From Mobula hypostoma (taxonomy: Eukaryota): a DNA stretch of 64,000 nucleotides. The DNA is taken from positions 123,072,001 to 123,136,000 of the forward strand of contig NC_086097.1 in assembly GCF_963921235.1 (NCBI RefSeq), in the 5' to 3' direction. Below are positions 5,985 through 61,813 of the stretch, one piece after another; within the stretch, counting starts at the first letter, position 1, and every line of letters starts with the position of its first letter. A program made the translations under genes and the position numbers. The notes under the pieces are model-generated. The model had not been told where the DNA came from and ran no database searches. It saw only the letters and a list, made by a program, of their open reading frames with translations.

Positions 5985-8030
5985 TTGGTCTCCTCTAAGG
6001 GGGCACCCCTTATATTCTTAGGGGCCTTTTCTAAATCCGCAACACTCCTCTGGCTCAGAAGTCCTATATATCTCCTGCTTGCTTCCCTTTACATCTGGAG
6101 GTTTGCCTCCAAGAACCTTGGTCTCAAACAATTAGTAAAAATGTTATTCGCTTTTCTCAGTTTCCACCATCTCTGCAACCTTTTCTCAAAATGAGGCTTT
6201 CCATTCTGGAACGCCTGAGACCTCCTTCCAAGACCGAAGTTCCCCTTCCTCTACCATCGATATTGACGAATAGGTAAGGCTCATTTTCATTGACTACAGA
6301 TCTGCCTTTAATACCATCATTCCATATAAACTGATTCCTAAGCTCTGGAACCTGGGCCTTAGCACTCAGATCTGCAGCTGGATCTTCAGTTTCCTCACAG
6401 ACAGGACCCAGGCTGTAAAAATAGGAGACAAGCTCTCCTCTACAATCACTCTGAGCACTGGTGTCCCACAAGGCTGTGTACTCAGCCCCCTGCTGTACTC
6501 ACTGTACACCCATGATTTTGTAGCCAAGTTTCCATCAAACTCAATATATAGGTTTGCTGATGACACAACAATTGTAGGCCGTATCTCGGGTAATGATGAA
6601 TTTGAGTACAGAGAGGAAATTAAGAATCTGGTGGCATGGTGCGAAGACAATAACCTATCCCTCAACATCAGTAAGACGAAGGAATTGGTTGTTGACTTCA
6701 GAAGGAGTAGCGGACCGCACGACCCAATTTACATCAGTGGTGCGCAAGTGGAACAGGTCGAAAGCTTTAAGTTCCTCGGGGTCAATATCACAAATGACCT
6801 GACTTGATCCAACCAAGTAGAGTTCACTGCCAAGAAGACCCACCAGTGCCTTTACTTCCTGAGAAAACTAAAGAAATTTGGCCTGTCCCCTAAAACCCTC
6901 ACTAATATTTATAGATGCACCGTAGAAAGCATTCTTCTAGGGTGCATCACAACCTGGTATGGAAGTTGTCCTGTTCAAGACCGAAAGAAGCTGCAGAAGA
7001 TCGTGAACATGGCACAGCACATCACACAAACCAATCTTCCGTCCTTGGACTCACTTTATACCGCATGCTGTCGGAGCAGTGCTGCCAGGATAATCAAGGA
7101 CACGACCCACCCAGCCAACACACTTTCCGTCCCTCTTCCCTCTGGGAGAAGGTTCAGGAGCTTGAAGACTTGTACGGCCTGATTTGGGAATAGGTTCTTT
7201 CCAACTGTGATAAGACTGCTGAACGGATCCTGACCCAGATTTGGGCCGTACCCTCCAAATATCTGGAGCTGTCTCTCGGTTTTTTTGCACTACCTCACTT
7301 TCCATTTTTCTACTTTCTACTTATGATTTATAATTTAAATTTTTAATATTTACCAATTTTTACTATTTATAATATTTAATATTTGTAATCCAGGGAGCGG
7401 GGAGCGCAGAATCAAATATCGCTGTGACGATTGTACGTTCTAGTATCAATTGTTTGGCAACAATAAAGTATAAAGTATAAGTATTGCACCCACCTGTATC
7501 TCCTCCATTTCCCAGACATCCACCCTCACTCCATCTTCTCACAGCATTAATAGGGATAGAGTTCCTCTTGTCCTCACTTACCACACCATGAGCCTACTCA
7601 TCCAACACATCATTTTTCAAAACTTCAGTCATCTTCAACAGGATCTACCACCAAATACATCTTTACCAACCACCACCCCCCCCTCACTTCCCACTTTGTA
7701 TAGGAATCCTCTGTGATTTCTTTCTCCACTTGTCCCTCCCCAGTGATTTCACTCTTGGCATCTATCCCTGCAAGCAGGACAAGTGCTACATCTGCCTATT
7801 CATCTCCTCCTCACTACCGATCAGAGCCCCAAACATTCCTTCTAGGCGAGACTACACTTTACCTGCAAGTCTGTCAGGGTCATTTACTGTATCCGATGTT
7901 CCTGGTGCAGCCCCATCTATATCGGTGAGACCTGACATAAATTGGAGGACAGCTTTTTCAAGCACCTTCTGTCTATCTGCAACAGCGAGAACTTCCCACT
8001 GGTCAACCATTTTAACTCCACTCCCTAAGG
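5985..8030 (+). mobile_element. Decayed Penelope-like ORF (RT C-terminus to GIY-YIG) split by the Rex insertion
   Basis: 5' part ...GAGGCTTTCCATTCTGGA... continues after 7485; 7770-8020 has Cys-rich linker (CKQDKCYIC) and VIYCIRC..YIGET-like GIY-YIG remnants, homologous to 18588-19058. Confidence 0.75.
6274..7483 (+). mobile_element. 5'-truncated Rex-Babar LINE; RT/thumb pseudo-ORF 6274-7233 with two in-frame stops
   Basis: Continuous frame [17 protein letters not shown]...[19 protein letters not shown]...YRFADDTT...LPSGRRFRS...FFPTVIRLLN; TGA at 6805 and 7180; (AAAGTAT)n tail. Confidence 0.9.
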
Positions 8031-18020: not shown

Positions 18021-18231
18021 GTACCTCAGTACATGATAGAATAATACACCAATTTACCTCTACAAGATTATTGCCTTTTCTCTTTTACTCCAATTAAATC
18101 AGCCCCAACCTGCTTAACCTCTGTCCATAGAACAGTCTCTCCTGATTTGGCAACGTCTTGTAAATCTCTTCTACACTCATGTCATCTTTCTTATAGCAGG
18201 GCTACTAAAACAGAACAGAATATTCCAAAGC

Positions 18232-19185
18232 AACGTATACAAAATGCTGGAGGAACTCGGCAGGTCAGGCAGTATTTGTAGAAATGAATAAACAGTCAAT
18301 GTTTCAGGCAGAGACTCTTCTTCAGGTATGGAAAGGAAAGGGAAAGATGTGGGGAGAAGGGATGGAAACTAGCCAGAAGGTGATAGGTGAAGACAGCTGG
18401 GTAGGAAAGGTCGAGGACTGGAGAGGAAGGAAATAGGAGAGAAAAGTGGACCATAGGAGAAAGGGAAGGAAGTGGGGGCCCAGGGGGAGGTGATAGGCAT
18501 GTGACAAGAGGTAAGAAGTCAGAGTAGGGAATAGACGAAGAGGGAAGAGGAAGGGATTTTTTTTTAACCGAAAGGAGAAATTGATGTTCATGCCAGCAGG
18601 TTGAAGACTATCCAGATGGAATATAAGGTTTGCTGCTCCACCCTGAGGATAGCCTCATTGTGGCACAAAAGGAAGTCAGGGACCGACATTTCGGAAGGGG
18701 AATGGGAATGGGAATTGGAATTTAAATGTTTGGCTACCAGGAAGTTCGGCTTTTGGTGGATGGATTGGAGGTGCTCAATGAAGTGGTCCCCCAATTTACG
18801 ATGGGTCCAACCAATGTAGAAGCGGCCAGATCGGGAGCTCCGGACACAATAGACGACCCTAGCAGATTCACAAGTGTTGCCCCAGTGTTTGGGGCACTGA
18901 ATGGAGGTGAGGGAGGAGGTGAATGGGCAGGTGTAGCACTTCAGCCACCTGCAGGGATAAGTGCCAGAAGGGAAATTAGTGAGGAGGGACAAATAGACGA
19001 GGGAATCACGGAGGGAGTGATCCCCATGGAAAGCGGAGAGACAGGGAGGTAAAGACATGTTTGAATATGCTTGGTGGTAGGATCCCTTTGGAAATGGTGG
19101 AAGTTGTGAAGTATGATGTGTTGGATGCAGAGGGTCATAGGGTGGTAGGTAAGGACAAGAGGAATTCTATCACTGTTAAGGTGGT
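18232..19185 (-). mobile_element. Penelope-like element 3' part with GIY-YIG endonuclease remnant
   Basis: ORF 18588-19058: TYPC..KCYTCP...VVYCVRSSRSGRFYIGWTHRKLGDHFIEH...VAKHLNS; ends in a decayed hammerhead terminus at ~18293-18326. Confidence 0.85.
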
Positions 19186-21859
19186 GTACCAAATGTGGCC
19201 TCACCAACGTCTTGTATAACTGCAACATTAATCCCAACCTCTATACCCTCAATGATAAAGGCCAGCATGTCAAAAGGCTTCTTCACCACCATGTGTACCC
19301 AAGATACCACTTGCAGGGAACCATGTACTCATAATCCAAGGCCTTTCTGTTCACAAAGTCATGCAACTGAATTAGGTTCTCCTTCTCTGTTTGAATAAAG
19401 ATTCTGATTAAAAAATAAATGGACATATAAAGGCAGTAGATCGAAGAGAGCCACGATTGGAAATCCATTTTGAAAGATCTTCATTCAGGAAGGTACGAGA
19501 ACACAATACATTCAAACTTAAGAGCAGATAGAACATAGAACATAGAACATTACTTTGGCTCACCATGTTGTGCCAACCTTTTCACCTACTCTAAGATTAA
19601 TCTAACCCTTCCCTCTTTCATAGCCCTCCATTTTTCTATCATCAATATGCCCATCTAAGAGTTTCATATCTGCCTCTACCACCAGCTCTGGCAGGGCATT
19701 CCATGCATCCACCACTCCGGGTGAAAAAGGCTTTGTCTCTGTTCACTTGTTCTAAATGCACAACATTGAAAGATCTGCACAGTGTCTAGCCCCCTCTTCT
19801 GCACACATAGCACGAATGGCTGCAGATGGATTTCTACCCCATTAAGTTTAAATTAAAGTAAGTCATTCCAGTCAAACTGAGAACTGTAACAAATGCATTA
19901 TTTTGTTTGATTATGCAAAGTGAAGTTCACTGCTTGGAATAAGCTCAGTCAGCAATAACCTAAACTCATAGCGAGTTCCATTCATCACTTCCACTGCCTT
20001 CTCATTTTGCCATTTTCCACCTCAATTTTTAAATTGTTTCAACCCCCTCAATCTCCACTCATCCAATCCAGTAATGTGTTGCTCCAAGTCTGCTCTTCTG
20101 TTCATCCCTTACTCTATTCACTCTCATTCAGACCTTCAGACATTACAAACCAGTGCCCCTCTCCTGTACTTCCATATCTCCTAATACCTCATTCACCACG
20201 GCTATATTTCATAAGGAGCTTAAGGAGATTTGGCATGTCATGAAGGACTCTGACAAATTTCTACAGATGTAATGTGGAGAGCATTCTAAATGGTCGCATC
20301 AATGTCAGGTATGGGTGGGGGGAGGGAACTGGTGCTACTGTACAGGATCGAAGTAAGCTGCGTGGTAAACTTAGCTCCATCATGGGCACTAGCCTCCATC
20401 GTGACCAGAACATCTTCAAGGAGCAATGCCTCAAAAAGGTGGTGCCCATCATTAAGGACCCCATCCCCCAGGACATGCCCTGATCTCAGTGGTACCATCA
20501 GGAAGGAGGTACAGAGCCTGAAGACACACATTCAGGAACAGCTTCTTCCCCTCTGCCATCTGATTCTTGAATGGGCATTGAACCCATGAACACTACCTCA
20601 CTACGTTGTTTATTTCCATGTATTTCAACAAATTTCACAACACATGCCTGTGATATTAAACTTGGTTCTGACCCTTGTTGAAGCTCATGTCCAACATCCT
20701 CTTAGGATCTCCCTGACCAGTTTGTCTCGTAAAATTGTAAAGTGCACTGGATATCCTTCAATATTCTAAACATACTAACAAAATTTACTTTTATTTGTAG
20801 CATAATGTGATGGGGCATAATTTTAAGATGATTGGAGGAAAGTATGGGGGGATAGCAGATGTAAGCTTTTTACACAGATAGTGGTGGGTGGTTATGCAAA
20901 CCTTCATATAAACAGTTCAATTGAATCACAGAACACCCAATGTACTTGATAGAATGAAAGGTTCAAGGAATAAAGGTACAGATAGAGTAGATAGGCAAAG
21001 ACATTTTCCCAGGACAGAAATAACTAATAGAAGAGTGCATAATTTTAGACAATAAGACCATAAGATATAGGAGCAGAATTAGGCCATTCAGCCCAATGAG
21101 TCTGCTCCTCCATTCCATCAAGGTTGATCCCAGATCCCACTCAACCCCATACAACTGCCTTCTCGCCATATCCTTTAATGCCCTGACCGATCAGGAAATG
21201 ATCAACTTCCGCCTTAAATATACGCATGGACTTTGCTTCCACCACAGTCTGTGGCAGAGCATTCCAGAGATTTACTACTATATGGCTAAAAGACTTCCTC
21301 CTGACCTCTGTTCTAAAGGGTCACTCCTCAATTCTGAGGCTGTGCTTTTAGTTCTGGATACACCATAGGAAACATCCTCTCCGCATTCACCCTATTGAGA
21401 CCTTTCAACGTTCAGTAGGTTTCAATGAGATTCTCCTGCATTCTTCTAAATTCCAGTGAATACAGGCCCAAAGCTGCCAAACTTTTCTCATATGTTAACC
21501 TCTTCATTCCCAAATCATCCCCGTGAACCTCCTCTGGACTCTCTCCAATGACAACACAACCTTTCTGAGATAAGGGGCCCAAAGCTATTGACAATACTCC
21601 AAGTGCGGCCTGACTAGTGTCTTATAAAGGCTCGGCATTATCTCCTTGCTTTTATATTCTATTCACCTTGAAATAAATGCCAACATTGCATTTGCCTTCT
21701 TTACTACAGACTCAACCTGTAAATTAACCTTCTGGGAGTCTTGCATGAGTCCCTCTGCACCTCTGATGTTTATACTTTCTCCCAATTTAGGTAATAGTCC
21801 GCACTATTGTTCCTTTTACCAAAATGCAATATCAAACATTTCCCAACACTGTATTCCAT

Positions 21860-22531
21860 TTACAACTTTTTTGTCCATTCTTCCAATTTCTCTGAGCCCT
21901 GTTGCAATTGCATTACCTCCTCAGGACTACCTACCCCTCCACCTATCTTTATATCATCCACAAACTTTGCCACAAAGCCATTAATTCCATTATCCAAATT
22001 ACTGACAATGTGAAAAGCAGCGGTTCCAATACTGACCCCCTGAGGAACAACACTAGCTACCAGCAGCCAACCAGAAAATGCCTCTTTTATTCTCACTCGC
22101 TGCCCCCTGCCTGACAACCATTCCACTATCCATGCCAGGATCTTTCCTGTAATGCCAGAGGATTTTATCTTGTTGAGCAGCCTCATGTGTGGCACCTTAT
22201 CAAGTGCCTTCTGAAAATCCAAGTAAATGACATCCACTGCCTCTCCTTTGCCCACCCTGCTTGTTACTTCCTTGAAGAACTCTAAAAGATTTGTCAGGCA
22301 AGATTTCCCTTTACAGAAATCATGCTGACCTTGACTTACTTTATCATTAGTATCCAGATACCACGAAACCCAATCCTTAATAATAGACTCCAACACTTTC
22401 CCAACCACTGAGGTTCGGCTAACTGGCCTATAATTTCCTTTCTTTTGCCTTCTTTCCCTTCTTAAAGAGTGGAGTGATATTTGCAATCTTCGAGTCCTCT
22501 GACACCATGCCAGAATCAAGTGATTCTTCAA
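21860..22531 (-). pseudogene. CR1 ORF2 reverse transcriptase remnant
   Basis: NYRPVS.TSVVGKVLESII...KSCLTNLLEFF...VDVIYLDFQKA.DKVPH...VPQG...KFVDDIKIGG. Confidence 0.9.
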
Positions 22532-23821
22532 TGATCATAACCAATGCATCCGTTAACTCTTCAACAACCTCTCTGAAAACTCTGGGATGTAGTCCATCTG
22601 ACCCTGGTGACTTATCCACCTTAGGACCTTTGGGTTTGCCTAGCACTTTTTCCTTTGTATTATCAATGGCACCCACTCTTGCTCCCTGACACTCATGGAC
22701 ACTCACAGACCTCTGGCAGATTGCTAGTGTCTTCCACAGTGAAAACAGATGCAAAGTACCTATTAAGTTCTTCTGCCATTTCTTTGTTCCCCATAACTAC
22801 CTCACCAGCATAATTTTCCAGTGGTCTAATATCACCTCTCACCTCCCTTTATATAACTGAAAAAACTTCTGGTATCCTGCTTTATGTTATTGGCTAGTCA
22901 ATTATATTATGATCACCGTCTCCTAAGGGTTTCTTTATGTTAAGCTCCTAATAAGATCTAACAACGTCGAGTAGACTCAAGTACAAGTTGCTCTAAAAAG
23001 CCATCTCATAGACGTTCAACAGATTCCCTCTTTTGCAATCTGGCACAAATCTGATTTTCCCAATCCCCTTGCATATTGAAGTCCCCCATTACAATTGAGT
23101 CATTAACCTTATTACATGCCTTTTCCAACTCCCTTTGCAATCTCAACCCCACATCTTGGCTACAATTTGGAGACCTATATGTGGTTCCCATAATGGTTTT
23201 TTCACCCTTGCAATTTCTTAACTCGACCCACAAAGATTAAACATTCTCTGACCCTAAGTCACCTCTTTCTAAAGATGTAATTCCATCTCTTACCAACAGA
23301 GCCACACCGCCACCTATGCCTTCCTGCCTGTCCTTTCAATACAAAGTATATCTTGTGATGATAAGCTCCCAACAATGGCCTTTCAGCTATGACTCAGTGA
23401 TGGCCACAATGTCATACCGACCAATCTCTAATTGTGGCACAAATTCATCCACCTTATTCCGCACTTATTTAAATACAGCACCTTCAGTCCTGCATTCTTC
23501 ACCCTTCTGAATTTGGCCTCTGTGGCACAATTTAACTCTTTGCTCTGTCTGCATTTGTACCCAAGCATTAGCTTGTCCTTCCTTATATTCATACTATACC
23601 GATCATCCACTCGTAAACCTGCTGGTTCATCCTCAGCTCCATTATCCTGGTTCCCATCCCCCTGCCATATTAGTTTAAACCACTCCCAACAGCTCTAGTA
23701 AATCTGCCCGCAACAAATTTGGTCCCCCTCAGATTCAAGTGCAACCATCACTTTTGTACAGGTCCCACATGCCCCAGAAGAGGTTCCAATTATCCAAAAA
23801 TCTGAATCCCTGTCCCCTGTT

Positions 23822-24208: not shown

Positions 24209-25616
24209 AGGGCCAGACTCAGTGCCAGAGGCATGTTCGCTGTTGCTTCCCCCAGGTAGGTCATCCCCCGCCCTGCCCAGCAGTACTCAAAATGGAGTAC
24301 TTATTGTTGAGGGGGACAGCCACAGGGCTGGTCTCCATTTTCTAACGTTCCCCCTTCCCTCTCCTGACAGTCACCCATTCATCTGTCTCCTGTAGCTTGG
24401 GGTTACTATCTCCCTGTACCTCCTGTCTATTACTACTTCACTTTCCAGAACAAACCAAAGATCATTAAACTGCAGCTCCAGTTCCCTAACATGGTCTCTA
24501 AGGAACTGCACCTCGATGCACCTAGCACAGATGTGACTATTGGAGAGGCTGTGAGTCACCCAGAAAGCTCACATCTGACAGCGAGAACAGAACACTGGCT
24601 CTGTAGACATACACCTATTCTCTCTAGAGCTGAATAAGAAATAATGAACTTACCTAGACTCTGCCTGTTCTCACTGAAGCCCTGTTTGAGCAAAAGCCTT
24701 ACTACTCTGCTTCAGACTACTCCGACGACGACCGCTCTGCTAGACGGTACCTCTCTTTTTATAGAGACTGGGTTTCCCATCGAAAATCTTTGTTGGACCT
24801 GCGCAGGAATGCTCCTGTTGCGTCTGCACTGTAGTCCAATCAACAACTCCCGTCGAAAAACTTGCTGCGTTTTCAAGCTCTTTGTTAGACCTGCACAGGA
24901 ATGCTCCTGTTGCATCTGCGCAGTCCTCCAATCAGCGTAACTCCAAATTTAAGCTGATTGGAGGAAAGTATAGTGGAGCTGTCAGAAGTATGTTCTTTAC
25001 ACAGAGTAATGGCGAGAGTGTAGTTTTTCACCGGTCCTATTGTACTTCTTGGTTCTACTGTGAAAATTGAATCTCAGGATAGTATGCAGTGTTATTTACA
25101 CATTTTGATATTACATTTACTTTGAAGCTTGGATTGTGGGAGGAAACTGGAGCACCCAGAGGAAACACACATGGTCACAGGGTGAATATATAGATCCCTC
25201 ACAGGACAGTGGCGGAATTGAATTTAGGATAGTGGCGCTGTAATGGTGTTATACTAACCACTGCACGACAGTGGAGCCCCCATTTGAAGCTGCAGCTGTC
25301 CAGCGGAATATGGAGTAAGTTGCTGAACTTGAACTAGAAGTTAGCATATTATTGAAAACCTTTTGAAATCCTCCATTATCAGTACATTGTAATTATTTGT
25401 TGAGATTTCAAACGGTCAATTCAGGTACTGTAAATATAATCACAGTAATCACACATTCTTTTCATGCATTAGGTATTAGCAAGGATCTTCAAAGTAACAA
25501 ATCTAGACTCTCCAGTAAGAGTTCATTGAAATTTATTCATATATTTTGTTGCCATAGTTTCAAACAAAACAACTTAATAACCCATATATTCTCTCAGTTA
25601 AACAGAAAATAAAATT

Positions 25617-26610
25617 TGCAAGGCGGTGGGAATGAAGCAACAGGGAGCTTGGACAAGTTGGGAGAAGGCGGTTGAGAGGAAAGTGACCTGGGCTGAGCTT
25701 TGGAAAGCCGAACCACACCGCATCCAATTTCTCATCCAGGCAGTGTACGATGTGCTTCCAAGCCCATCAAACCTGCACACATGGGGCAAGGCAGAGTCAT
25801 CTGCGTGCCCACTGTGCTCTAAGCGAGGAACCCTGGAGCACATCCTCAGCGGCTGTGCAAGGGCACTTGGTGAGGGACGGTACAGGTGGAGGCATGATCA
25901 GGTCCTGAAGACCATCGCTGAAGCCGTCAGCGCAGGAGTTGAGTGGGCGAAGCGGTCCCGACCCTCCAAGCAGACCATTGCCTTTGTCAGAGCTGGGGAG
26001 CTGTCAATACCTGCCAAAAGAACATCTGCAGGCATTCTGACCTCTGCAAGGGACTAGCAGCTGTTGGTGAACCCCGAAGGGCAGCTGAAGTTCCCCAACC
26101 ATATCGCAGCCACCACCCTGCGACCAGACATTGTCCTGGTGTCTGAGTCGACTAAGCAAGTGGTGCTGCTGGAGCTGACAGTCCCATGGGAAGATAGCTT
26201 GGAAGAGGCCTTTGAAAGGAAGCTCTCCAAGTACGCAGGACTGGTCAGCAACTGTCAGCAGGCTGGATGGAGAGCGAGGTGTCTCCCAGTGGAGGTCGGT
26301 TGTAGGGGATTCATAGCCCGTTCTTTAGCTAGAGCCTTCAGCATTTTGGGCATCGAGGGAGAGAGGAAGAGGAGAGCCATCCGCAGTACCACCGATGCGG
26401 CAGAGAGGGTCTCAAGATGGCTGTGGCTCAAAAGAGGGGAGCCATGGAGTCATAAGTAGCTAGCCATCTGGACACAAGCTGGGGTCTGATCAGCCCCGGA
26501 TGGGTCACCTGGAGGAGGTTGTATGACGTTGAAAGACCCGAAACACCCGATGATTCCAGGAACATCACTGAAGATGTGTCCAGAAGCATCAATAGATGTA
26601 TGTACACAAT
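25617..26610 (+). mobile_element. 5'-truncated HERO-like (REL-endonuclease) non-LTR retrotransposon; ORF 25617-26459 with a single nonsense codon (26055-26057)
   Basis: CCHC knuckle CPLCSKRGTLEHILSGC, RHDQVL, PD-(D/E)xK-like RPDIVLVS...LLELTVPWE, K..KY, VEVGCRGF. Confidence 0.85.
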
Positions 26611-26631
26611 ACCTGGTGCATTGTTTGAATT

Positions 26632-26856
26632 AGAAACACTAAGGATTCTGCAGATGCTTGAAATCCAGAGCAATACACACAAAATGCTGGAGGAACCTAG
26701 CAAGTCAGGCAGCATCAATGGACAGGAATAAAAAGTTGATGTTTCAGGCCGAGGCCGAGTTCTGATGAAGGATCTCAGTCCGAAACATTGACTGTTTAGT
26801 CCTTTCCGTAGATGCTGCCTGAACTGCTGAGCTCCTTTGGCATTTGTGTGTGTTGA
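26632..26856. mobile_element. Palindromic Penelope-terminus element with 12-bp TSD
   Basis: TSD ATTGTTTGAATT at 26620-26631 and 26857-26868; inverted arms; + arm has CTGATGA-A-GGATC(TC)AGTCC-GAAA. Confidence 0.85.
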
Positions 26857-27692
26857 ATTGTTTGAATTGTGTGCTGTGATCAACAACACTGCTTTCAAAC
26901 TAACATTACATTCAGCTAAATGTATTAATTAAATAAAACTGTCACTTAATAATTCACTACAAGGTTTACAGAACGATGCAAATCAATGACTTTTCTACAC
27001 ATCTTACGTATTAAAATGCTGCACGTTATAGAAAAGGCTGTATATCTAGCTAGATTTACAGTTGCTATTCTCACATAAATGCCAATACAGCATAGTGGTT
27101 TAAAACCTTATTTCAATCTTCTTTATAAAACTATTAATGGTGATCACACCTGGATAGCTATCAGTTTTAACATGACGACCACATGTAATGTACAGATGAC
27201 AAAGAAGTTCCATTGCGCATTGCCGCATTTTGCAGATGAGCACAATATCTTTCAACAATCAGCTTTGATAAAAGAGTTGCTTTAATTGGCAGAGGTACAT
27301 TGAAACACCAAAATGTACAGTGAAATGCAGGGTTTAAACCAAATCATGTCAATGAGGATTGTGATAGGGGTAGGTAGCAAGTGTCGTCATGCTCCACTGC
27401 CAACCTAACATGCTGACAACTAACTAACCCTAAGTGAATGTGGGAGGAATGCGGAGCACATGGAGGAAACCCGTGTGGACACGGCGAGAACGTACAAAAT
27501 CCTTACAGACTGTGGCGGCCACTAATTGGTGATCACTGTAAAGTGACTGTGCTAACTGCTAGGCTAATACCTTCACATCACTCTGAGAATTCAACACTTC
27601 GAGACATGGGCAACACATACAAAATGCTGGAGAACTCAGCAGGTCAGGCAGCAACTATGGAAAAGAGAATACAGTCAATGTTTCGGGCCAAG

Positions 27693-29560
27693 AACATAAG
27701 GCCATAGGACATAGGAGCAGAATTAGGCCATTCAGCCCATCGCATCTGCTCTGTCATTCCATCATGGCTGATCCTGGCTCCCACTCAACCTCATACACCT
27801 GCCTTCTTACCATAATATTTGATGCCTTGACTGATCAGGAAGCTATCAACTTTCATTTTAAACATAGCCACAGTCTTGGCCTCCACCACAGTCTGTGGCA
27901 GAACACTCCACAGATTCACTACTCTCTGGTTAAAAAAACTTCCTCCTTACCTCTATTCTGAAGGGTCACCCGCACAATTTTGAGTAAGTACCCTCTAGTT
28001 CTGGACACCCCCACTATAGAAGACATTCTCCACATCCACTTTATCTAGTCCTTTCAACATTCGGTAGGTTTCAAAGGGATCCCCCAACATTTTTCTGAAT
28101 TCCAGTGAATATAGGCCCAAAGCTGCCAAACTTTCCTCATATGTTAGCTCTTGCATTCCCGATCATCCCTGTGAACCTCCTCTGGACTCTCTCCAATAAC
28201 AACACAACCTTTCTGAGATAAGGGGCCCAAAACTGTTGACAATATGCCAAGTGGGGACTAACTTCTGTGTCTTATAAAGCCTCAGCATTATCTCCTTATT
28301 TTTATATTCTATTCCCTTTGAAATTAATGCCAACATTGCATTTGCCTTCTTTACCACAGACTCAACCTGAAAATTAACCTCTGGGAGTTCTGCATGAGGA
28401 CTCCTAAGTCCCTCTGCACCTCTGATGTTTGAATTTTCTCTCCATTTAGATAATAGTCTGCACTAGTGTTCCTTTTACCAAAATGCATTATCATGCATTT
28501 CCCAACACTGTATTCCATTTGCCACTTTTTTGCCCATTCTTCCAATTTGTTTAATTTCATTTGAAATTGCATTGCTTCCTCAGCACTACCTACCCCTCCA
28601 CCTATCTTCGTATCATCCGCAAACTTTGCCACAAAGCCATAAATTCCATTATCTAAATCACTGACAAACAATGTGAAAAGTAATGGTCCCAATACTGACC
28701 ACTGAGGAACACCACTAGTCACTGGCAGCCAACCCGAAAAGGTCCCCTTTATTCCCACTCACTGCCTCCTGCCTGTCAGACATTCCTCTGTACAGGCCAG
28801 TATATTCCCTGTAATGCCATGGGAATTTATCTTGTTAAACGCCTCATGTGTGGCATCATATCAACTGCCTTCTGAAAATCCAAGTAAATGACATCTACTC
28901 TCTCTCCTTTGACCACTCTGCTTGTTCCTTACTCAAAGAACTCTTTAACAGATTTGACAGGCAAGACTTCCCTTTACAGAAACTATGCTGACTTTGACTT
29001 ATCTTATCATAAGTCTCCAAGTACCACAAAACCCAATCCTTAATAACAGACCCCAACACTTTCCCAACCACTGAGGTTCGGCTAACTGGCCTATAATTTC
29101 CTTTCTTTTGCCTTCTTCCCTTCTTAAAGAGTAGAGTGACATTTGCAATCTTCCAGTCCTCTGAGACCATGCCAGAATCAAGTGATTCTTGAAAGATCAT
29201 AACCAATGCATTTGTTATCTCTTCAGCAACCTCTTTCAGAACTCTGGGATGTAGTCCATCTGGTCCAGGTGATTTACCACCTTAAGACCTTTCAGTTTGC
29301 CCAGCAATTTTTCCTTTGTAATAGCAATGGCACTCACTCCTGCTCCCTGACACTCACAGACCTCTGGCACACTGCTAGTGCCTTCCACATTGAAAGCTGA
29401 TGCAACGTACTTATTGTTCATCTGCCATTTCTTTGTCTCCCATTCCCCTCTCACCAACATCATTTTCCAGTGGTCCAATATCAACTTTCATCTCCATTTT
29501 ACTCTTTATATAACTGAAAAGACTTTTAGTATCCTGCTTTATATTATTGGCTAGTTTGCC
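27693..29560 (-). mobile_element. 5'-truncated CR1 LINE (RT remnant) nested in a Penelope terminus (27610-27692 and 29561-29910)
   Basis: ORFs 28351-28758 (SGVPQ.SVLGPLLF...KFADDTK) and 28895-29206; the host hammerhead motif GTTTCGGGCCAAGA|CCCTTCATCAGG is split by the insertion. Confidence 0.9.
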
Positions 29561-42570: not shown

Positions 42571-42924
42571 TCAAGATTGATAGATATTTTAAAATGTCTT
42601 CAAACAATGTTGCTTACTGAAGTTCCTATGAATGAGACTCTTGATTTCAGCTATAGTAGTCCTGAAGGGAATAGCAGATTTCCAGCTTCGGAGCTGCATG
42701 CGAAGATTTGCCACTCTCCAGTGGCATTTTGCGTGGATAATAACTTGACAGACTATTTTATTGGCATTGAACTATATCGTGTGATGCTGAGGCACAGCTG
42801 AAATGGTTAGAGATAAGTCAGTCAATATCAGCTCAGACAACAATAATTCCTATCAGCTGGAGGCAAAATTAGCTTCCTGTTCTTGCCAGTTTTCTGGAAA
42901 AATCCTGAATAATATGTACACATG

Positions 42925-43718
42925 GTACACACAAAATATTGGTGGAACTCAGCAGGTCATAAGACCATAAGACAGGAGCAAAATTAGGCCATTCAAACCA
43001 TTGAGTCTGGTCATGGCTGATGTATTATTCCTATCAACCCCATTCTCCTGCTTTCTTCTTGTAAACTTTGACACCCTATATATCAACCTTGGGTTTAAGT
43101 ATACCTAATGAATTGATCTCCACAGCCATCTGTGGCAATGAAATGTATAGATTCACCACCCTCTGGCTAAAAAAATTCCTCCACATCTCTGTTCTAAAGG
43201 GTCATCCTTGTATTCTGAGACTGTGCCCTCCGGTCCTAGACTCCCCCACTTCTGGAAACATCTTCTCCATGTCCACCCTGTCTAGGCCCTTCAATATTTA
43301 GTAGATTTCAATGAGAATCCTCCTCATTCTTCTAAACTCCAGCAAGTACAGGGTCGGAGCTATCAAATGCTCCTCTATGGAAGGAAATAAACAGTTGACA
43401 TTTTGGGTCGACATCCTTCATCAGGGCTATTATTAAAACCGGCAGGAACAGGAAGCTAACTAATTTTGTATTCAGCTGATGGGAATTATTGCAGACTGAG
43501 CTGATATTAACTGACTTATCTCCAAACATTGTAACTTTGCCTCAGCATCACACTACATAGTTCAATCTCTATAAGCTAGATTGTCCAGTTATTAAGGGTC
43601 TCGGCCCAAGATGCCGAGTGTTTATTTCCCTCCGTAGATGCTGTCTGACCTGCTGAATTCCTCCAGTGTCTTATGTATGTTGCATTGGATTTCCAGCATC
43701 TGCAGAATCCCGCGTTTG
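42925..43718. mobile_element. Palindromic Penelope-terminus element with TSD, nested CR1 (42958-43372) and captured inverted flank (43435-43593)
   Basis: TSD TAATATGTACA(C/A)ATG at 42910-42924 and 43719-43733. Confidence 0.8.
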
Positions 43719-44613
43719 TAATATGTACAAATGTATTCAGCAAACTTCAACCATCAGACTCCTGACCACCGTGGGTAACTTCACTCACCTCAACTCTGAA
43801 CTGATTCCACAACTTATGGGCTCACTTTAAGGACTCTCCAGCTCATGTTCTCAGAATTTATGTATGTATATATGAATTCACTTTATTTACTATTATTTGC
43901 TTTTTTGTATTTGCTCAGTATGTCTTCTTTTGCATATGTGTGTGTAGTTTTTCATTGATTCTGTTGTAGTTCTTTGTTCCACTGCGAATGACTGACACTT
44001 GACCACCAGGTGTTCCAGGTCGGGGGAAGGACCGAGTCAGAACCAACTTGAAGCAAATGCGGCTGCCTTCGCCTTTACCTGACACCGCTGTCTGGTCCAT
44101 GTGGTGGAAGGTGAAGCCCCAGGGCTTCTCCTGCAAGATGCGAGCAAGAAGATCACCTGCCCGCACAGTTGCCCGACCAGGATTTCTTCCCCACTAAGTA
44201 CTTCTGTTCAGCTGCCACTGAATCAAACCATCAAAAGAGGCTCTTTGACCCATTAGGTCTGCTGTCACTAATCCCAAAGTGGGTTTTCAGCTTTATGTGT
44301 TTGTAGGATTCCTCTCCCACCTCACTCACTAGGAGTGATTTTAAGGCTGCCATGCAGATGTTGACAAAATTCCCTAAAGTCAAAATCAAAGTAAATTTAT
44401 CATCAAAGTCACCATATACTACCTTGAGATTCAGTTTTTGTGGACAATTGAAGGGAAATAAAGAAGTACAACAGTATTTATGAAAACCATACATAAACAA
44501 AGACTGACAAACATCCAATGTGCAAAAGAAAGACTGTCAAATCAATGTGGTGGTGATGAACAAGGTCGTCTAGAATACAGGTGTTGATATTTCCTCCATT
44601 TCAATCCCTATAT

Positions 44614-61705: not shown

Positions 61706-61813
<108 letters not shown>

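Follow-up and report, generated by a model that had tools for sequence, protein, structure and literature searches.

A single Penelope-type insertion in the genome of Mobula hypostoma carries, between its two arms, an inverted copy of host DNA taken from its own upstream flank. The copy constitutes the spacer between the arms (43429–43594, minus strand), as delimited by alignment and by contigs that bridge it to both arms, and its template is the flank at 42738–42893 (plus strand). All positions refer to the window, i.e. the whole stretch of 64,000 nt that was analyzed. The copy lies inside the target-site duplication (TSD) and between the arms, and the template lies outside; the locus thus holds an inverted copy of target-adjacent single-copy DNA within the TSD. 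Taken together, the data support a local event within one Penelope-type insertion, by which single-copy host DNA was duplicated in inverted orientation. The original prediction had read the locus as a record of template switching onto target-adjacent DNA during integration. Its duplication part was retained, given that flank and copy were each represented by about one contig per sequencing run; copying by the reverse transcriptase of the element during integration is one possible route, and a host repair polymerase may equally have been at work.

Sequence evidence for the inverted copy

When 42738–42893 was aligned with the reverse complement of 43435–43594, 130 of 160 columns matched. The identity of roughly 80% that had been read by eye between 42737–42893 and the reverse complement of 43435–43593 was thereby confirmed, with slightly refined limits. 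Of the 156 aligned pairs, 26 are mismatched, 14 by transition and 12 by transversion (corrected distance, 0.19); the alignment also includes one 4-nt gap. Its score of 171 compares with a best value of 28 for 300 shuffled sequences. Across the window, each of the two segments matched only the other. Self-comparison of the window yielded 14 two-copy pairs, three of which were inverted. Flank and copy formed the sole inverted two-copy pair less than 10 kb apart; the members of the other two were separated by 10.7 and 27 kb.

Architecture of the insertion

From left to right, the locus comprises the flank, the left TSD (42910–42924, plus strand), a tail-less antisense arm (42927–43428), the spacer, a sense arm with a 3′ tail (43594–43718, plus strand), and the right TSD (43719–43733, plus strand). 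Between the template and the left TSD, alignment identified 14 flank bases that are absent from the copy (42894–42907, plus strand). The two TSDs match at 14 of 15 positions, a level found at only these two sites in the window, and their score of 12 exceeds the maximum of 8 obtained for 150 random pairs. The 15-bp TSD originally proposed to bracket the whole unit was therefore borne out.

The left Penelope-like arm is interrupted by a repeat of roughly 413 bp (42960–43372, minus strand), which was absent from the original prediction. Sequence comparison divided this arm into an outer, tail-less piece (42927–42959, minus strand) and an inner piece (43373–43428, minus strand). The interrupting repeat is the 3′ end of a LINE-type repeat with many copies in the window, which we take to be CR1. 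It represents a later insertion: other copies of the arm join across its position, and the piece is also present in organism C (see below). A longer copy of the LINE repeat at 21052–22898 carries RVT_1 (E = 8 × 10−17). This copy and another at 27696–29555 contain a reverse transcriptase frame; each is 1.9 kb long, and the two are 84% alike and lie 4.8 kb from each other.

In the right arm, likewise defined by sequence comparison, some 10 inner bases are missing, among them the first hammerhead core box. This arm extends about 35 bases past the start point of the left arm; a tail is thus found on one end only. In the available text of PMC8557442, an inverted copy with a one-sided tail is described as the usual layout of endonuclease-bearing Penelope-like elements. 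The insert shows this Penelope-like layout, with an inverted 5′-truncated copy, a one-ended tail of 30–40 bp, and a TSD.

Minimal hammerheads of Penelope-like elements have been described (PMC4209133, available text). In the insert, the left arm has only the first core box, located in its inner piece, and the right arm has none; both boxes were present in four of nine other arms tested. A minimal hammerhead ribozyme in the insert was rejected on the grounds that neither arm has both core boxes, and an Rfam search over the window gave 0 matches at the gathering score. The copy had been predicted to sit between inverted hammerhead arms. It does lie between two inverted arms, neither of which retains a whole hammerhead core. 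Several short arms (2110, 2192, 31770, and 43428) have almost identical end points, which lie immediately outside the first hammerhead core box.

Identity of the arm family

At least 14 copies of the arm family are present in the window. The segment at 18591–19166 (minus strand) is collinear with the arm at 18225–18345, and its top Atlas matches were GIY-YIG clusters (0.96). In a related copy near 7885–7920, a C-x2-C motif lies between the endonuclease motifs; two cysteines between the GIY-YIG motifs are given as a mark of Penelope endonucleases (PMC8557442, available text). The evidence for endonuclease-bearing Penelope-like elements thus comes from longer copies of the arm family, located outside the insert itself.

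Decayed GIY-YIG endonuclease ends of Penelope-like copies were observed at 7547–8020 and 18588–19166. A Pfam search of the decayed endonuclease pieces found no family, and a six-frame motif scan of the window detected no Penelope-type (telomerase-related) reverse transcriptase. Pattern scans for further arm loci returned three viral matches, and first 0 and then 7 metagenome matches. All ten agreed with only 17–22 bases of the pattern and were discarded as chance. Two open frames at 25602–26459 (plus strand) presumably represent the 3′ part of a restriction-endonuclease-type retroelement.

Copy number and presence in relatives

Four sequencing runs were compared with the sequence at 85% likeness: X1 from organism A (possibly the sample of origin), X8 from organism B, and X9 and X11 from one sample of organism C. 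Summed depth on flank plus copy corresponded to about one contig per run (12–16 in X1, 48–49 in X8), and on the arms plus LINE piece it reached 10^4 to 10^6. The original prediction had named a high-copy repeat inserted twice as the finding that would overturn it; these depths, with roughly a single contig in each run for flank and copy and 10^4 to 10^6 for the arms, speak against such a repeat.

One organism B contig (43378–43659, 5 other letters) and one organism C contig (43329–43655, 30 other letters) run without gaps from the left arm through the spacer into the right arm. A further organism C contig, in which 42863–42907 is missing, connects the left arm and the LINE piece with the flank. 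The insert is therefore in place, with arms and copy, in the two relatives B and C. Among the joints listed (15, with 1288 more beyond the listing), none skipped the insert as expected for an empty site, and both relatives carry it. Among the matches listed in the four runs, no contig spanned the whole stretch. The segment missing from organism C (42863–42907) and the stretch omitted from the copy have their right end in common. In organism B, 20 bases (42911–42930) that include most of the left TSD are missing.

It is extremely improbable that no templated copy was made at all, and that the pair instead reflects two insertions of one repeat or a faulty assembly. Old repeats less than 85% alike would escape the run comparison; nevertheless, flank and copy were each covered by about one contig per run and had no further match in the window. 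As for an assembly error, flank and copy differ at 17% of sites, and the two relatives share the layout and show changes of their own.

Junctions and proposed mechanism

The spacer starts at 43428/43429. The reverse complement of 43428–43434 is identical to 42908–42914 (plus strand; seven of seven bases), a segment that overlaps the first 5 bases of the left TSD and is the probable start of the copied stretch. Because the first seven spacer bases match the edge of the left TSD, copying probably began at the cut itself. The match was noticed post hoc; seven bases would match by chance in 0.4% of 31-base windows and in 1.6% of AT-rich ones. Global alignment puts the 6–7 junction bases elsewhere, with a shorter gap. 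Under the seven-base reading, the copy begins 5 bases inside the left TSD and a 14-base deletion is needed. Judged from these alignments, the copied stretch probably reaches into the left TSD and omits 42894–42907.

The omitted bases lie in a weak DNA hairpin (−3.3 kcal/mol), which was equalled by 8 of 200 shuffles, and by 31 of 200 in a wider context. They also have a 6-base word in common with the inner end of an intact arm (chance 3.4%). This word was set aside as a priming site because the bases after it do not fit. Exact homology at each junction amounts to 1 base.

We consider it probable that a single integration of a Penelope-like element with an endonuclease involved priming of cDNA at both cut ends, and that the left cDNA doubled back on the strand to which it belonged. 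The endonuclease would cut the two strands at a stagger of 15 bases and thereby produce a pair of 3′ overhangs that account for the TSD. Both 3′ ends would then prime short cDNAs on element RNA, the right arm from the tail start and the left arm from an inner start. Since an element arm sits between the TSD and the copy, the left end would have been extended first on element RNA. Next, at the single-stranded overhang, the left cDNA would fold onto the strand that carries it and grow leftward by about 165 bases along the resected or displaced flank. Either the reverse transcriptase of the element or a host enzyme such as polymerase theta might perform this synthesis. Finally, the extended left cDNA and the right cDNA would be joined, sharing no more than 1 base of exact homology. 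Afterwards, the locus would mostly have decayed, with a LINE inserting into the left arm.

Folding back appears to be the simplest path because, from within the TSD onward, the top strand reads as the reverse complement of what lies upstream on that strand. Folding on the overhang would have to start at the left TSD edge, which the first seven spacer bases match. The certainty of this reading is limited by the fact that this is one case, too old for clean junctions, and that only one of the four head-to-head pairs found in the window contains such a copy.

A copy in this orientation that ends close to the break would also result from invasion of the flank duplex, or of a sister chromatid, by the right cDNA at about 42738, followed by synthesis toward the break up to run-off. 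By eye, the end of the copy loosely resembles (four of six bases) the inner bases that the right arm has lost. However, exact homology at the right junction is limited to 1 base. Moreover, the left fragment, once cut, is without a bottom strand across the TSD and therefore cannot supply the 5 TSD bases with which the copy starts. We thus regard strand invasion as very unlikely.

Other head-to-head pairs and relative ages

Four head-to-head arm pairs were detected in the window, two of which (417–589 and 26643–26860) have no or almost no spacer. The latter pair, within 26620–26868, has a TSD with 12 of 12 matching positions and a tail on the left arm, and a TSD search for the pairs at 417 and 2013 found none. 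In the pair at 2013–2331, the arms differ at 12 of 97 sites, and the interrupted host repeat runs on through an 81-base spacer. Another copy of this repeat near 19520–19735 aligns in order with the left flank, the spacer, and the right flank of the pair (4, 0, and 0 of 300 shuffles as good), and short repeats are found at both spacer ends. The pair is a younger one, and may represent two close insertions or one event. It was rejected as an inverted flank copy, its spacer being in direct orientation.

In the window, then, one of four pairs has an inverted copy and two of four have target DNA between the arms, numbers too small to give a rate. Possibly, although we would not presume it, and as the second of these counts hints, head-to-head Penelope insertions routinely arise from two separately primed cDNAs at the target, with the gap often filled with target copies. 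If true, this family would be a genome-wide source of local inverted duplications, and two-ended priming would be favored over self-priming on antisense RNA.

Organisms A and C are about 9–11% apart. As the insert, the copy, and the LINE piece are present in organism C contigs, we infer that all three are older than the A/C split, with the copy roughly twice as old. The two arms differ from each other at 19 of 81 sites, and flank and copy at 26 of 156 (P = 0.22, no significant difference). Each arm is about 18% away from the majority state of the 14 window copies (16/91 and 16/87). This divergence is twice the 8% expected from half the distance between flank and copy, and allows the arms to be older than the copy. 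Part of it may be a subfamily difference because the two arms have five non-majority states in common. The ages of arms and copy agree, only within wide error.

These values bear on a history in two steps, in which a spacerless head-to-head insertion later broke at its center, at a hairpin or cruciform, and the break was mended by host repair with a templated copy of nearby DNA. The arms do look somewhat older than the copy, both in their non-CpG differences (16/69, compared with 24/152 for flank and copy) and in their distance from the majority state; the right arm has lost its innermost bases, and spacerless pairs such as those described above exist. On the other hand, the age gap is not significant, the end of the left arm coincides with the ends of other truncated arms, and nothing in this model puts the start of the copy at the TSD edge. 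Such a later repair is therefore unlikely, and fold-back during integration remains our preferred explanation.

Probable host gene and hairpin

An exon resembling CCDC102B was found at 61709–61813 on the minus strand. A profile of the next CCDC102B exon had no match in the window, and the same approach recovered six of six leave-one-out controls. As the next exon is absent from the window, the locus is probably intronic in a CCDC102B-like gene, with minus-strand pre-mRNA probably crossing it. If real, the intron would exceed 61 kb. An in-frame stop directly follows the exon, and some homologues end at the same place.

The polarity of such a pre-mRNA fits a further route, in which the right cDNA jumped to minus-strand host pre-mRNA, copied it toward the cut, and was joined to the left cDNA. 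The position of the exon, with the next one outside the window, agrees with this route, and one pre-mRNA co-insertion has been reported for L1 in the available text of PMC10191854. However, an RNA spanning the site gives no cause to stop at the TSD edge. In addition, the intronic position is itself deduced, and the in-frame stop, where some homologues end, weighs against it. An RNA template appears unlikely too, slightly more so than a history in two steps.

On the minus strand, the stem formed by flank and copy folds at −342 kcal/mol, compared with −227 kcal/mol for 20 shuffles, as expected of any inverted repeat. Its longest perfect run is 16 bp, or 30 with G-U pairs. The window holds 30 inverted pairs of at least 30 bases within 2.5 kb, so the hairpin of flank and copy is not special. 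A search of sequencing-run records of the DNA kind returned no RNA run carrying the stretch. A dsRNA role for the locus, which the original prediction had raised, is possible but unsupported.

Among the 26 variant rows listed for flank and copy, and within the 111 sites visible on both sides, three of nine flank changes in organism C face three of nine copy changes in organism C. These paired sites (42774/43558, 42795/43537, and 42857/43475) are matched pairs in organism C in all three cases. Chance was estimated at 0.025 for the overlap and at 0.002–0.028 for three matched sites in neutral simulations, for a pattern noticed post hoc. The paired changes are a weak hint of conversion or selection, and no more than a lead. 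On the basis of three sites, it seems very unlikely that conversion, or selection on an intronic hairpin, has since maintained the match between flank and copy.

Comparison with known systems

The locus is a single, ancient, and decayed one in a fish genome, and its value is that of a pointer to how the inverted ends of Penelope-like elements form. Their origin is stated to be open in the available text of PMC8557442. DNA of the target flank can be added between the arms only at the target; therefore, such loci can separate two-ended priming from a palindrome self-primed beforehand. The scar described here suggests that the two halves of the insert were joined at the landing site. As the arms are very abundant in the genome, the question of the inverted ends could be decided by counting young copies.

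Within the Penelope-like elements, the closest counterparts are inverted pLTR insertions of the Pen2a_Av type, for which captured host DNA between the pLTRs has been reported (PMC3846280, PMC8557442). As far as described in the available text, these have in common with our locus an inverted truncated 5′ copy, a tail on one arm only, and a single TSD round the unit. In contrast, their captured DNA is unrelated or distant, and not an inverted copy of their own flank. In the available part of PMC3846280, the inverted junction is explained by self-priming on an antisense template, which alone would not put target-flank DNA into the middle of an insert, as observed here. For an anole Penelope protein, cutting and extension of both strands have been described, with two start sites that define the tail (PMC11167929, available text). 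This fits one arm with a tail and one without. Our literature search, with most subscription papers and supplements outside its scope, found no inverted copy of the own flank reported for Penelope insertions, and the available text of PMC12910113 and of 10.64898/2026.07.22.740005 contains nothing on flank copies in such insertions.

Outside this family, two systems, human L1 and R2, resemble the proposed fold-back. In L1 retrotransposition, the available text of PMC10191854 (Nam et al. 2023) lists foldback inverted duplications of 52–220 bp upstream of the target in three cases (0.3%), plus one foldback combined with twin priming. These have been modeled as self-annealing of a resected end (bioRxiv 10.1101/2024.12.14.628481, available text). 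Like them, our locus has a short inverted duplicate beside the target in a TSD-bearing insertion, and its length of about 165 bases falls within their range. It differs in that the bare reciprocal end folds on itself in L1, whereas here the TSD and the copy are separated by an element arm; furthermore, a different enzyme family is involved, and the event is a fixed germ-line one. The second system is R2, whose cDNA ends snap back onto nearby target DNA in PRINT (PMC11371274, PMC11331408, available text). There, too, the 3′ end of a cDNA primes on nearby target, which leads to reverse-complemented target DNA at the junction. R2 snap-back, however, involves one cDNA, and snap-back onto target DNA is its rarer subtype, whereas two outward-facing cDNA arms are present here. 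In a family for which we found no report of such a scar, this locus would, by analogy, have worked like L1 foldback and R2 snap-back.
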